A stretch of 36,931 nucleotides of DNA, taken from positions 1 through 36,931 of the forward strand of contig JANMDF010000072.1 in assembly GCA_031376145.1 (NCBI GenBank). Direction: 5' to 3'. Within the stretch, counting starts at the first letter, position 1, and each line of letters opens with the position of its first letter. The position numbers and the translations under genes were made by a program. Positions 3,178 to 20,888 of this stretch are shown here, piece after piece. The notes under the pieces were generated by a model. It was not told the DNA's origin. It did not search any database and was given only the letters and a program-made list of their open reading frames with translations. This DNA comes from Alphaproteobacteria bacterium (GTDB lineage Bacteria; Pseudomonadota; Alphaproteobacteria; JAJTHO01; CANGXP01).

Positions 3178-4746
3178 ATGTTATCCGCCACAACCAACAC
3201 TGCCGCGCTGACCGCGCAACGCTTCCTGGATCAATCCAGTTCAATGGCGTCGTCATCGATTGCCAAGATGTCATCGGGTTCCCGTATTGTTAAGGCTTCT
3301 GATGACGCGTCATCATTGGCGATTGGTAACAAGTTGCGGGCTGACATCTCTGCCTTGCAGCAGGCCACACGAAATGCCTCACAGGGTGCATCACTGTTGC
3401 AGGTTACCAACGGTGCTATTGACCGAATCGGCGATATTCTGACCCGGTTGAAAACCTTGTCTACACAGGTGGTGAACGGCTCACTGTCGACACCAGAGCG
3501 TCAGTTTGCCCAACAGGAATTTACCGAGCTGGTAACCCAGATTGACCAGATTTCTTCACAAACCCGCTGGAACAGTGTATCCATGCTGAACGGGGGTGAT
3601 AAAACCCTGGCCTCTACCAACACCCTTGGCTCAGACGTCAGTGCCGGCGTGTCCGGTGCCAGAGGCAGTGCAACACCAGGTGGTTATTTCAACCCGACTA
3701 CAGCCAGTAACGTGTTTAATACCTTTACTGGCACAGTTGATGGCCAGGCTAAAAGTGTAACAGTGGTGCAGAACGGCTCAGCCAACCAGTTTAAAATCAA
3801 TATCGAAATCGGTAATCAGACCTTTGAAGGCTATGCCTCATACAGCCAGGCCAGTGGTGGCAGTATTACGATGACCAGCACCACCAACAGCCATAATACT
3901 TTTAGAATTGTCAACAACGCGGCAGCCCTGGGTACCAGTGCGGCCACGCTGGAAAGTGACCTGGAAAGTGCGCTGTCTCTGGATACCACCACGTCGCCAC
4001 CGGCAAGTTTCCAATCAAAAGCATTAACGAATGCCAACGCTGCTGCCCTGCTGGAAGCAGGGGCGACCACACTGGGCAGTGTGATCACCGCTACCGGCGC
4101 GGCTGTGGATGGTATTTACAACCTGACCTCACGGCACGATACGGCAACGGGAACCACTACATTTCGTGTGCAGCATGAAGATGGCAGTGTGTATCAGGCA
4201 ACCCTGCCTAATGCCAGTACTGCCACGGGTCAGCAAACGATTGTTTTCAGCAATGGTACTGAATTGAAGCTCGCTGAAGCACAGGCTCAGGCAACCGCAA
4301 CAACAAACCTGGAAGGTGTACGTTTTGAAGTCACCCGTGGCTCAGCCACCACCATGGATTTCCAGGTTGGTGTGAAAGCCACGGATACGATTACCATCAG
4401 CTTTGTGGCCATGACCTCACAAAGCCTGGGGCTGGATGTCTTGAATATTGAGACGCAGGCGGGTGGTACAACGGCTTCAGCGGCGGTATCCGATGCGATT
4501 AACAAGGTAAACATTGCCCAGGCACAATTAGGGTCGATTCAAAGTCGAATGGAATATGTACAGAGCAACCTGTCAACCATCATCGAAAACCTGTCCGCTG
4601 CCAAAGGGATCTTCCTGGATGTGGATATGGCACGTGAGATGACTGAATTTACCAAACAGCAAACCCTGATGCAGGCTGGCGTTGCCATGCTGGCACAGGC
4701 CAACCAGATGCCACAGTCGCTGTTGCGACTGATCCAGGGTGGTTGA
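3178..4746 (+). CDS. fliC: Flagellin (long variable central domain)
   Basis: 522 aa. The conserved N-terminal D0/D1 reads SSGSRIVKASDDASSLAIGNKLRADISALQQATRNASQGASLLQVTNGA. The C-terminus reads AQLGSIQSRMEYVQSNLSTIIENLSAAKG...QQTLMQAGVAMLAQANQMPQSLLRLIQGG. The centre (~300 aa) is T/S/A/N-rich. Confidence 0.9.
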   Translation: MLSATTNTAALTAQRFLDQSSSMASSSIAKMSSGSRIVKASDDASSLAIGNKLRADISALQQATRNASQGASLLQVTNGAIDRIGDILTRLKTLSTQVVNGSLSTPERQFAQQEFTELVTQIDQISSQTRWNSVSMLNGGDKTLASTNTLGSDVSAGVSGARGSATPGGYFNPTTASNVFNTFTGTVDGQAKSVTVVQNGSANQFKINIEIGNQTFEGYASYSQASGGSITMTSTTNSHNTFRIVNNAAALGTSAATLESDLESALSLDTTTSPPASFQSKALTNANAAALLEAGATTLGSVITATGAAVDGIYNLTSRHDTATGTTTFRVQHEDGSVYQATLPNASTATGQQTIVFSNGTELKLAEAQAQATATTNLEGVRFEVTRGSATTMDFQVGVKATDTITISFVAMTSQSLGLDVLNIETQAGGTTASAAVSDAINKVNIAQAQLGSIQSRMEYVQSNLSTIIENLSAAKGIFLDVDMAREMTEFTKQQTLMQAGVAMLAQANQMPQSLLRLIQGG

Positions 4747-17007: not shown

Positions 17008-17391
17008 GTGAATCCGACCCCATCCAACCGGCCATTATCACCGCATTTGCAGGTGTATAAGCCGCAACTGACCTCTATTCTTTCCATCAGCCATCGTTTA
17101 ACCGGCCTCATTCTCTCTGCCGGTGCCGTCATGCTGGTGATGTGGCTACTGGGCATTGCCTTTGACCGGGATTTTTATGATGCGCTGGTCATCAGCCTGC
17201 AGACCATGCTGGGGCGTGCCGCTTTGGTCGTATGGGTGTTTAGTTTCTATTACCACCTGGGTAATGGTATCCGGCATCTGTTCTGGGATGCCGGCAAAGG
17301 TTTTGAGTTGAAGAGTGTCTACGCAAGCGGTTATGCGGTGGTAATTTTTGCAATCGCTGCAACCGTCCTCACCTGGGGAGTGCCTTTATAA
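17008..17391 (+). CDS. sdhC: Succinate dehydrogenase cytochrome b556 subunit
   Basis: GTG start. RPLSPHLQVYKPQLTSILSISHRLTG is the SdhC signature. Confidence 0.9.
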   Translation: MNPTPSNRPLSPHLQVYKPQLTSILSISHRLTGLILSAGAVMLVMWLLGIAFDRDFYDALVISLQTMLGRAALVVWVFSFYYHLGNGIRHLFWDAGKGFELKSVYASGYAVVIFAIAATVLTWGVPL

Positions 17392-17786
17392 TGCGTACAG
17401 AAAAACAACAACTGGCCACCGATCTCGCCAAAGCGCGTGGCCTTGGCTCTGCCAAGACCGGCACGCATCACTGGTGGCTGCAACGCGTCACCGCCGTTGC
17501 GCTGATTCCGTTGTCCATCTGGTTTATGTCAGCCATCATCAAACTGCCGAGCATGGAACATGCCGAGGCTTATGCCTGGCTTTCCGATCCATGGCACGGC
17601 ATTCTCATGCTGCTGTTTGTTCCTACCGCCATTGTTCACGCATTGCTGGGTGTGCAGGTCGTTATTGAGGATTACGTACACGGCCACGGCGCAAAAATTG
17701 GCATGCTGCTGGCGACAAAGTTTCTGGGGTACGGCCTGGCGGTTACGGCTGTGCTGGCTATTATTAAAACTGTTATTGGAGCCTGA
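17391..17786 (+). CDS. sdhD: Succinate dehydrogenase membrane anchor subunit
   Basis: TAATG overlap with sdh[17 protein letters not shown] is the SdhD signature, and there are three hydrophobic helices. Confidence 0.9.
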
Positions 17787-17788
17787 AC

Positions 17789-19579
17789 ATGGCGGCAGCC
17801 TATCAAATCATTGATCATTATTATGATGTCGTTGTTGTCGGTGCCGGTGGTGCAGGTTTGCGTGCCACGCTGGGCATGACGGCTGCTGGCCTGAAAACCG
17901 CCTGCGTTACCAAGGTCTTTCCTACCCGCTCTCACACCGTGGCCGCACAGGGTGGTGTTGCTGCCGCCCTGGGGAATCTGGACGAAGATTCCTGGGTAAA
18001 TCATATGTATGATACCGTCAAAGGCTCTGACTGGCTGGGTGATCAGGATGCCATTGAATACATGTGCCGCGAAGCTATTCCCGCTATTATCGAGCTGGAA
18101 AACATGGGGGTTCCATTCTCCCGTACTGAAGATGGTAAAATCTACCAGCGCCCGTTTGGTGGGCATACGGTTAACCAGGGCGAGAAAATGGCACGCCGCG
18201 CCTGTGCGGCGGCTGACCGTACCGGCCATGCCATTCTGCACACCCTGTATCAGCAGTGCCTGAAATACAATGCTGAATTTTTTGTAGAGTATTTTGCCCT
18301 GGATCTGATTTTTGATGGCGAAGGAACATGCCGTGGTATCCTGGCCTTATGCCTGGAAGATGGTTCCATGCATCGCTTTTATGGACATCAGACCGTACTG
18401 GCCACCGGCGGCTTTGGTCGTGTATATTTTTCCTGTACATCGGCGCATACCTGCACCGGGGATGGTGGGGCAATGGCGCTGCGTGCTGGCCTGCCGTTAC
18501 AGGATCTGGAATTTGTGCAGTTTCACCCTACCGGTATTTATGGGGCAGGCTGTCTGATTACCGAAGGGGCACGCGGGGAAGGTGGATACCTGACCAATTC
18601 CAAAGGCGAACGCTTCATGGAACGCTATGCCCCCAATGCAAAAGACCTGGCTTCCCGTGATGTCGTCAGTCGCTCGATGACCATGGAAGTGCGCGAAGGG
18701 CGCGGTGTTGGTGCGGAAAACGATCATATTTTCCTGCATCTGGAACACCTGGGGGCAGATGTCCTGCATCAGCGTCTGCCTGGTATTTCTGAAACCGCCA
18801 AAATTTTTGCCGGTGTTGACGTAACGAAAGCCCCCATTCCCGTGCAACCCACCGTACACTATAATATGGGCGGTATTCCTACCAATTATCATGGCGAAGT
18901 GTTACGCCCCACCAAGAAGAATCCTGATGCCGTCTGCCCGGGTCTGATGGCTATTGGCGAGGCAGCGTGTGTGTCGGTACACGGTGCAAACCGGCTGGGC
19001 TGTAATTCTCTGCTGGACATTGTGGTGTTTGGCCGTGGGGCAGCCATGCGGGCAGCAGAACTGATCAAGCCTGACAGCCCCCATAAGCCAGTACCTGCCA
19101 GCGACAGTGATGCGGCATTAAGCCGTTTTGATAAAGTCCGCCATGCCAAAGGCGAGGCCAGTGTTGCGGACTTACGCCTGCAGATGCAGAAAACCATGCA
19201 GAATAACTGTGCCGTTTTCCGCACCACCGAAGTCCTGCAGGAAGGCGTCGATAAAATGACCAAAATTGCCAGTCAAGTGGCTGACATCGGCATTAATGAC
19301 CGCTCCCTCATCTGGAACAGTGACCTGGTGGAAGCCCTGGAACTGGATAACCTCATGGCACAGGCCATTACCACCATGCATTCCGCCAACGAACGTAAGG
19401 AAAGCCGTGGTGCTCACGCCCAGGAGGATTTCCCGGATCGTGACGATGAAAACTGGATGAAACACACGCTGGCCTGGGTTGATGCCAAGGGCAAGGTCAA
19501 GATCGACTACCGCCCGGTGCATTACTATACATTGAACAAAGAAACGGAAGTGGTACCGGCGAAGAAGCGGGTGTATTAG
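17789..19579 (+). CDS. sdhA: Succinate dehydrogenase flavoprotein subunit
   Basis: [18 protein letters not shown] fold, SHTVAAQGG containing the His for covalent FAD, and a conserved C-terminus. 596 aa. Confidence 0.95.
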
Positions 19580-19589
19580 GGTTCGCAAT

Positions 19590-19826
19590 ATGCCCACTGT
19601 TTTGCGCCAGCAAGGATACCGCTTTTTCTTTTACTCTTTGGAAGGGAAAAGCAAACCACACATACGTGTGTTCAGAGCAGGCGCAGAGGCAAAAATTTGG
19701 CTTTCTCCCATAGACTTAGCAAAAAATTCAGGCTTTCCTTCTTATGAATTACAAAGCATCTTCAAAATAGTAGAGTCTCACGAAAGCATGTTATTGGATA
19801 AATGGTATGAGTATTTTGGTTATTGA
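19590..19826 (+). CDS. DUF4160-family small protein
   Basis: MPTVLRQQGYRFFFYSLEGKSKPHIRVFRAGAEAKIWLSPI...LLDKWYEYF fits the DUF4160 pattern (FFFYSxExxxPHxHV...AKxWL). It starts 10 nt after the sdhA stop. Confidence 0.75.
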   Translation: MPTVLRQQGYRFFFYSLEGKSKPHIRVFRAGAEAKIWLSPIDLAKNSGFPSYELQSIFKIVESHESMLLDKWYEYFGY

Positions 19827-20082
19827 TGAGGACTGTGTTGCAGCCAAAAAAGTTGTCTGCACCAACACCCACCTTGTTCTCACCCTCGAAGGTGGACATG
19901 AGGTTCACGCCCCACTGTGGTTTTATCCACGTCTACATCAGGCAACCGCGTCACAACGAGCGCACTACGAGATTATGCGTTTTGGCATCCACTGGCCAGA
20001 TATCGATGAAGATTTAAGTATTAAAGGCATTTTAGAAGGCCGCAAGGCTCCTGGTGCAACCCCACCTGATAACATTAATTAA
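19807..20082 (+). CDS. DUF2442-family small protein
   Basis: [56 protein letters not shown] fits the DUF2442 pattern (YPRL..AT...R......G.GIHWPDLDEDLS). It overlaps the DUF4160 gene by 20 nt. Confidence 0.75.
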
Positions 20083-20105
20083 AAGCAGCAAGCATAGGCA
20101 GAATC

Positions 20106-20888
20106 ATGGCTGAATTCACCCTCCCCAAAAACTCCAAAGTCACCAAAGGCAAGGATTTTCCAAAGCCTGAAGGCGCGAAGCGTACTAAAAAATTCAACAT
20201 TTATCGCTGGAATCCTGAGGATACCCAGAATCCGCGCCTGGACAGCTATCATATCGATCTGGAAAAGTGCGGCCCCATGGTGCTGGACGCATTGATCAAA
20301 ATTAAAAATGAGGTTGATACCACGGTCACCTTTCGCCGCTCCTGCCGTGAGGGGATTTGCGGCAGTTGCTCCATGAACATTGACGGCACCAATACCCTGG
20401 CCTGCCTCAAGCCCATTGACGAGGTTAAAGGCGATATTAATATTTATCCCCTGCCGCACATGCCGGTGGTAAAGGATCTGGTGCCGGATCTGAACCATGT
20501 TTACGCACAATATAAATCCATCAAACCGTGGCTGCAGGCCGACAGCAAGCCACCTGCTGGCAAAGAGTTCAAGCAGAGCGTTGAAGAACGGGAATTGCTG
20601 GATGGGATGTGGGAGTGTATTTTGTGCTTCTGCTGTTCTACCAGCTGCCCAAGCTACTGGTGGAATGGGGATAAGTATTTAGGGCCGGCTGTGCTGTTAC
20701 AAGCCTACCGCTGGATTCAGGACAGCCGCGATGAGGCCACCGGTGCCCGCCTGGATGATCTGGAAGATCCGTTCAAGCTGTATCGTTGCCACACCATCAT
20801 GAACTGCACCAAAACCTGCCCCAAAGGATTAAATCCCGCCAAAGCGATTGCCGGCATCAAGCAGAAGATGGTTGAACGGCAGCTGTAA
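20106..20888 (+). CDS. sdhB: Succinate dehydrogenase iron-sulfur subunit
   Basis: It carries the [32 protein letters not shown] and [17 protein letters not shown] cysteine clusters. Confidence 0.95.

Follow-up and report, generated by a model that had tools for sequence, protein, structure and literature searches.

The common picture of a toxin-antitoxin (TA) system is that of an autonomous bicistron which regulates itself and resides on a mobile element or island. In DhiTA of Dickeya dadantii 3937, the DUF4160 toxin gene comes first and overlaps the DUF2442 antitoxin gene by 3 nt (listed as -3 bp), the genes are co-transcribed, the toxin is toxic and is neutralised by its partner, and the pair is an autoregulated, free-standing bicistron with its own promoter within 100 bp upstream (PMC8198452). 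In Thermus thermophilus, a plasmid-borne tandem of the same two domains stabilises its replicon and enhances plasmid persistence; a plasmid without the second ORF could not establish, whereas a plasmid without the first ORF could, which is genetic evidence that the second ORF neutralises the first (PMC12724237). In the Menshen antiphage system, DUF4160 is the predicted effector domain of NsnC, and no confident structural homologue of it was found (PMC12065111). A literature search for TA cassettes inside sdh or pheST operons returned nothing relevant.

The window analysed here, a stretch of 36,931 nucleotides, belongs to a 1.7-Mb metagenome bin (genome G000; 319 contigs, GC 0.509) from a family of streamlined Alphaproteobacteria known from metagenome bins only, one sister bin coming from Lake Mendota. 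It carries a succinate dehydrogenase operon on the + strand in the order sdhC-sdhD-sdhA-cassette-sdhB, with Pfam support for all four sdh genes: sdhC (cytochrome b subunit, 17008..17391; Sdh_cyt, E 4e-31), sdhD (membrane anchor subunit, 17391..17786; Sdh_cyt, E 1e-18), full-length sdhA (flavoprotein, 17789..19579; FAD_binding_2 and Succ_DH_flav_C) and full-length sdhB (iron-sulfur subunit, 20106..20888; Fer2_3 and Fer4 domains), the last being single-copy in the genome (one match). Residues 1-596 of sdhA are 89% identical to those of the two sister genomes, G001 and G002. Between sdhA and sdhB lies a 526-nt gap filled by two ORFs on the + strand. The sdhA stop coincides in part with a weak Shine-Dalgarno-like element (AGGG), a 10-nt spacer (19580..19589) separates that stop from the ATG of ORF1 (78 aa, 19590..19826), ORF2 (91 aa, 19807..20082) overlaps ORF1 by 20 nt, and a 23-nt spacer (20083..20105) holds the sdhB ribosome-binding region with AGG at -11 to -9. 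These coordinates confirm the preliminary description, which had reported two overlapping ORFs of this size on the operon strand with spacers of 10 and 23 nt.

The DUF4160 and DUF2442 signatures claimed for the two ORFs were upheld by Pfam searches, which ruled out chance ORFs. ORF1 matched DUF4160 (PF13711) over profile positions 1-64 of 65 (E 6.4e-16, 58.8 bits, cut-off 23) and is a homologue of the toxin DhiT, while ORF2 matched DUF2442 (PF10387) over positions 2-71 of 72 (E 7.5e-15, 55.3 bits, cut-off 23.9) and is a homologue of the antitoxin DhiA; each domain occurs once in the genome. The earlier suspicion that the pair is TA-like is borne out by the experimental validation of DUF4160/DUF2442 pairs as type II TA systems in Dickeya (PMC8198452) and Thermus (PMC12724237). 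By its architecture, the ORF1/ORF2 pair is a predicted DhiTA-type (DUF4160 toxin/DUF2442 antitoxin) type II TA cassette. It shares with DhiTA the two domains, the toxin-first order, the overlap of the genes and the small size of the proteins (about 80-90 aa) (PMC8198452), and its 20-nt overlap with the toxin gene first, longer than that of DhiTA, is the modal overlap in 57 homologous pairs. ORF1 is a member of the same superfamily as Dickeya DhiT and not its equivalog, scoring 19 bits (E 0.0016) against a cut-off of 100 with the NCBIfam toxin_DhiT equivalog model NF048015, and its E-P-x-H-x-H motif is degenerate. In contrast to the free-standing DhiTA bicistron, the window's toxin ATG stands directly behind sdhA, with no separate promoter space. 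The Thermus module differs in being plasmid-borne and replicon-stabilising, whereas the window copy is chromosomal and intra-operon, with a toxin that is probably disarmed.

AlphaFold2 models were confident for ORF1 (pLDDT 92) and for ORF2 (pLDDT 84), and the predicted fold of ORF2 matched the DUF2442 structures PDB 3k8r and 2x8n. For the predicted fold of ORF1, no PDB analogue was found (best E 1.2), in keeping with the missing confident structural homologue described for the same Pfam domain in Menshen NsnC, and a PDB sequence search gave 0 matches; unlike NsnC, ORF1 is a small protein that stands alone, is partnered by DUF2442 and lies outside any Menshen locus. Among 5.8 billion clustered proteins, ORF1 had no relative above 55% identity.

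The cassette is most likely read through on the sdhCDAB transcript, because the spacers of 10 and 23 nt leave no non-coding room for a promoter or terminator, a crude motif scan of positions 19580-20105 detected no promoter-like or terminator-like site on the + strand (with totals not above those of shuffled sequence), and the sole sdhB lies downstream. The same crude scan gave no sigma-70-like site on the + strand, either within the cassette or immediately ahead of it, although a promoter may lie inside the sdhA coding sequence. The alternative is an sdhB promoter inside the cassette's own coding sequence; otherwise, the cassette must be transcribed through. Under either expression route, the free-standing autoregulated arrangement of DhiTA would have been lost. 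A short palindrome, CACACATACGTGTG (19657-19670), which coincides with the codons of the degenerate ORF1 motif, was flagged by the scan as terminator-like on the minus strand and is probably a chance occurrence.

We compared base composition with that of all G000 ORFs of at least 200 aa (mean GC 0.518, sd 0.035). The GC content of ORF1 was 0.392 (0.6th percentile of the long ORFs; GC3 0.392) and that of ORF2 was 0.467 (7th percentile; GC3 0.413), so that both ORFs ranked among the bottom 1-7% of long ORFs for GC as well as GC3; the sdh genes were at or above the median. The distribution of the insert was assessed in the order, which comprises 14 species genomes, three of them (G000, G001 and G002) in the window's family f1. 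DUF2442 was present at the sdhA|sdhB junction in all three genomes of family f1 and in none of the other 11 genomes of the order (0/11). In an even sample of the class (401 genomes), 48 genomes carried DUF2442, and in none of the 47 other carriers did it lie within 5 kb of sdhB. Among the best 80 of the 460 closest loci from 185,579 GTDB species genomes, the only DUF2442 in an sdh operon was that of G002. These results indicate that the pair is an insertion, since its GC lies far below that of the genome, and that the insertion is old, because all three family f1 genomes carry DUF2442 at the junction. The preliminary description was thus right that the cassette is foreign to the operon, as the percentile of ORF1 and the absence of the cassette from this site outside one small family show; the cassette is neither recent there nor unique to this genome. 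Its comparison of junctions in relatives comes out between the two: DUF2442 occupies the site throughout family f1, which partly agrees with the refuting outcome that the description had named, and was absent from it in the 11 other genomes of the order.

The statement that sdhA and sdhB are normally adjacent held in part. Across 29 relatives, the sdhA-sdhB gap was at most 99 nt in 14 (14 nt in G009, an order-level relative), but 6 had inserts of 374-1256 nt and 9 had an sdhB with no sdhA inside 1.5 kb upstream. Within the order, eight genomes had this last arrangement, namely G003, G005, G006, G008 and G010-G013 (family f2 and G005), and in G003 and G005 longer regions still lacked sdhA to about 4.8 kb, the operon being split exactly here. 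The junction seems permissive for cargo. In two genomes of a sister family, G004 (L040) and G007 (L042), it is occupied by an unrelated ORF of about 170 aa that has no Pfam match and whose N-terminus resembles a signal peptide with a Cys after it, as in lipoproteins. The gap of G033 (L025) contains a 230-aa ORF, also without a Pfam match, and the 374-nt gap of G026 (L034) contains no clear ORF.

Within family f1, the inserts of the two sister genomes, which belong to a sister genus, differ from that of the window. G001 has the order sdhA-DUF4160-DUF2442-sdhB, with a toxin 39% and an antitoxin 53% identical to those of the window. The DUF2442 protein of G002 is 71% identical to ORF2, and no toxin remnant was detected in this gap (L038) by a family HMM search at maximum sensitivity. 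In the 1256-nt gap of G002, the first ORF (53 aa, hydrophobic, two helices) has an ATG that overlaps the stop of sdhA; DUF2442, a 107-aa HEPN-like ORF (Pfam E 3.6e-5) and a 141-aa ORF without a family come next, and then sdhB. The extra genes may represent another TA-like pair that has accumulated at this site.

One ancestral insertion in the family f1 ancestor followed by rapid divergence is the favoured and most parsimonious account of these three genomes. The junction may instead have been hit more than once, with the G001 cassette as an independent acquisition or replacement at a permissive hot spot, a possible but doubtful history. It is suggested by the G001 pair, which is no closer to the window's than unrelated alphaproteobacterial pairs are although sdhA is 89% identical, by the unrelated cargo found at the junction elsewhere (the ORFs of G004/G007 and G033 and the HEPN-like genes of G002), and by the free antitoxin tree, in which G000, G002 and the cassettes downstream of rho (L133) and at glyA|nrdR (L129) form one clade (SH-aLRT 97) and G001 falls outside despite sharing the genus of G002. 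However, AU tests did not reject a single sdh clade (antitoxin P = 0.47, toxin P = 0.69), the constrained toxin tree even had the higher likelihood, and the pair trees rest on alignments of just 78-92 columns, long G001 branches and a family of three genomes; a single insertion with fast divergence also explains presence in 3/3 genomes more parsimoniously.

The closest full relative of the window pair lies at glyA|nrdR (L129 1967-2453, also L130-L132), with a toxin 53% and an antitoxin 67% identical; its toxin motif, EPPHVH, is intact, and its host bacterium has a higher GC. In G000, the glyA-nrdR junction is empty (156 nt). At the rho site, an orphan DUF2442 gene (L133 478-772) is 69% identical to ORF2 and is preceded by only a 17-aa C-terminal remnant of the toxin.

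We then examined the toxin motif E21-P22-x-H24-x-H26 in 157 aligned homologues informative at these positions. The results showed strong conservation (E21 in 154, P22 in 151, H24 in 156 and H26 in 155), while the window toxin reads S-K-P-H-I-R at codons 21-26 (19650..19667) and thus deviates at positions 21, 22 and 26 with H24 kept, a three-position deviation unique among the 157. The G001 toxin carries E-P-P-D-I-H (H24D), and a single further homologue, P0022, deviates in the histidines, with H-I-R like the window. Histidine deviants accounted for 2/2 sdh toxins versus 1/155 others (Fisher P = 2e-4, a post hoc value that ignores shared ancestry). The terminal branch of the window was 0.53 in the toxin tree, about 4 times the median of 0.14, and 0.16 in the antitoxin tree, equal to the median. 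ORF2 keeps 24 of the 28 positions conserved in at least 80% of homologues, its four deviations being largely common to its clade, and the antitoxin core is kept in all three family f1 genomes.

When TA systems decay, the toxin is expected to be lost first and the antitoxin to survive. We read the pattern in family f1 as toxin decay because three lineages show three different lesions and all have kept the antitoxin. The window cassette is most likely an attenuated or fossilising TA remnant and not a live addiction module, as far as sequence can tell; attenuation of the toxin is probable from motif conservation, the role of the motif in toxicity being putative for DUF4160. The reading frame of ORF1 is nevertheless unbroken and its fold is predicted with confidence, so it may retain toxin or another function. 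The description of the pair as an addiction-type cassette is not supported in that form, given that G000 and G001 have lost the motif, G002 lacks the toxin gene altogether and the toxin is probably non-working. What survives of the proposed selfish addiction cassette in an essential operon is the selfish origin, the essential operon and the difficulty of loss; the insertion is not a recent one, nor is it demonstrably addictive today.

Taken together, we consider it probable that the window holds an old horizontal insertion of a DhiTA type, acquired in family f1, read through within the operon and with a decayed toxin, which is today a disarmed remnant. Such a cassette would have entered sdhA|sdhB horizontally, once, in the family f1 ancestor and would have been transcribed through as part of sdhCDAB; its toxin side would then have decayed while the antitoxin core stayed. 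The remnant would persist as it is cheap, and imprecise deletion would damage sdhA, sdhB or the sdhB translation start. That the cassette is instead still a functional addiction or defence TA, in which ORF1 is toxic, ORF2 neutralises it and the module stabilises itself within an essential operon, appears unlikely. Both ORFs are intact with a family-typical overlap and confident predicted folds, toxicity and neutralisation by DUF4160/DUF2442 have been proven in two hosts (PMC8198452, PMC12724237), and another family member, P0022, also has H-I-R. Against this, E21, P22 and H26 are all changed in a combination found in no other of the 157 homologues, the sister genomes bear independent toxin lesions including loss of the whole gene, the lengthened terminal branch is confined to the toxin, and neither ORF matched a PADLOC-DB 2.0 defence model at E up to 0.1.

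Domestication would also explain why the antitoxin outlives the toxin: the pair, or DUF2442 by itself, could tune sdhB translation or stoichiometry, or could act in anti-addiction against incoming homologous toxins. Retention of DUF2442 with an intact core where the toxin has been lost (G002, L133 and 9/49 pheS|pheT loci) and recurrent nesting between subunit genes of heteromeric enzymes are in line with this idea. We nevertheless regard it as very unlikely, as nothing ties DUF2442 to the function of SDH, PheRS or PCC, the host junctions are diverse and also include glyA|nrdR, rho, guaA and gyrB-like sites, the junction carries no insert in G009 or in most of the class, the composition of the pair is still foreign, and survival of the antitoxin is the order in which TA decay is expected to run.

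To place the sdh copy among its relatives, we surveyed the context of the closest DUF2442 loci (L050-L128, the best 79 of 460 subclade members) by clustering, Pfam and tblastn. The results revealed that 49 of these best 79 loci lay at pheS|pheT (both flanks seen in 42) and 12 at pccB|pccA, the propionyl-CoA carboxylase beta/alpha junction. The other 18 of the 79 lay elsewhere, including 5 upstream of guaA, 4 of those within 13-40 nt, and one each behind a gyrB/parE-like and an H+-pyrophosphatase-like gene, these neighbours being named from sequence and not by profile search. The full toxin was missing and the antitoxin kept in 9 of the 49 pheS|pheT loci. Relatives at pheS|pheT and pccB|pccA (Hyphomicrobiales and other Alphaproteobacteria) and at glyA|nrdR (L129-L132) belong to the same DUF2442 subclade (45-69% identity). 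Their genes likewise overlap by 17-26 nt, and the toxin ATG follows a housekeeping gene of the same strand at a distance of 0-20 nt. They differ from the window pair in their host operons and in a mostly intact E-P-x-H-x-H motif, the sdh site being used only in family f1; G000 itself has no insert between pheS and pheT.

Among the closest pairs, the median distance from the toxin ATG to the same-strand upstream stop was 4 nt. The toxin lay within 20 nt behind a same-strand ORF in 40/57 pairs of this subclade versus 2/10 pairs of other subclades (Fisher P = 0.004, post hoc and ignoring shared ancestry). Site context was strongly clustered on the antitoxin tree: it changed 12 times, compared with a mean of 32.4 after shuffling, and 0/200 shuffles were as low, which implies that cassettes relocated rarely and were then retained for long periods. 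DUF2442 lay beside pheS in 0/47 carriers of the even class sample. Nesting as a trait of all DUF2442 genes was rejected, as none of these 47 lay next to sdhB or pheS and close placement was seen in just 2/10 pairs of other subclades. A conserved third gene ahead of the toxin was likewise rejected: the upstream proteins (PheS, PccB, SdhA, GlyA, Rho and others) are not one family. We did not find this operon-nesting habit of the subclade described in the literature, and it is a more interesting result than the sdh copy itself.

At four guaA-site cassettes, the 5' end of guaA recurs on both sides as a direct repeat of 83, 40, 23 or 14 bp. The longest, in L052 (3667-3748 / 4253-4335), had 97.6% identity (E 2e-38), followed by 40 bp in L055 (3657-3696 / 4258-4297), 23 bp in L056 and 14 bp in L058; a fifth guaA-site locus, L081, had no flanking repeat. 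No integrase or transposase was found near the guaA-site cassettes. Recombinase-free insertions with long target duplication have been described for restriction-modification genes. The guaA repeats are the eroding footprint of an insertion with a long target duplication. The window's sdh site retains no such repeat, the best flanking match being 12 nt (E 0.95, chance level), and none was found at the pheST, pcc and glyA sites. By analogy with the guaA relatives, the sdh cassette could have entered by the same mechanism, namely an insertion duplicating the end of the target gene.

From these observations, we tentatively propose, as an idea that may well prove wrong, that members of the subclade are promoter-less passengers. 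They would insert with target-end duplication, prefer the subunit junctions of essential heteromeric enzymes (PheRS, propionyl-CoA carboxylase, succinate dehydrogenase), ride the host transcript and persist very long, past toxin decay, since deletion endangers essential neighbours. If this is true, sdhCDAB would be a further operon occupied in this way. The placement itself, a few nt downstream of a housekeeping gene and mostly amid the paired subunit genes of a single enzyme, is habitual in the subclade: of the best 79 (of 460) members, 61 lie between PheRS or propionyl-CoA carboxylase subunit genes, and those of family f1 lie between sdhA and sdhB. The subclade offers a natural system for operon entry without breakage (the guaA footprint), for difficulty of loss and for the toxin-first order of decay, and it bears on annotation and on how operons and subunit stoichiometry are modelled for sdh, pheST and pcc in Alphaproteobacteria. 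Should no more than the local result stand, what the window contains is a decaying TA remnant of an ordinary kind at an unusual site.

Several features of the individual host loci were also recorded. The pccB|pccA loci include L051, L057, L061, L062, L069, L072 and L089, and the hosts at this junction are Stappia, Mesorhizobium, Aliihoeflea, Hoeflea, Jiella, Aurantimonas and a Rhodobacter bin. The extra gap genes of G002 showed no homology to the extra ORFs of pheS|pheT loci nor to anything in G000. Examples of the pheS|pheT arrangement are L086 (3784-4270), L099 and L110, with the toxin ATG, where a toxin is present, usually a few nt from the pheS stop, and some pheS|pheT loci hold more small ORFs ahead of pheT, of 143 aa and 155 aa, as well as a 346-aa ASCH-domain protein.
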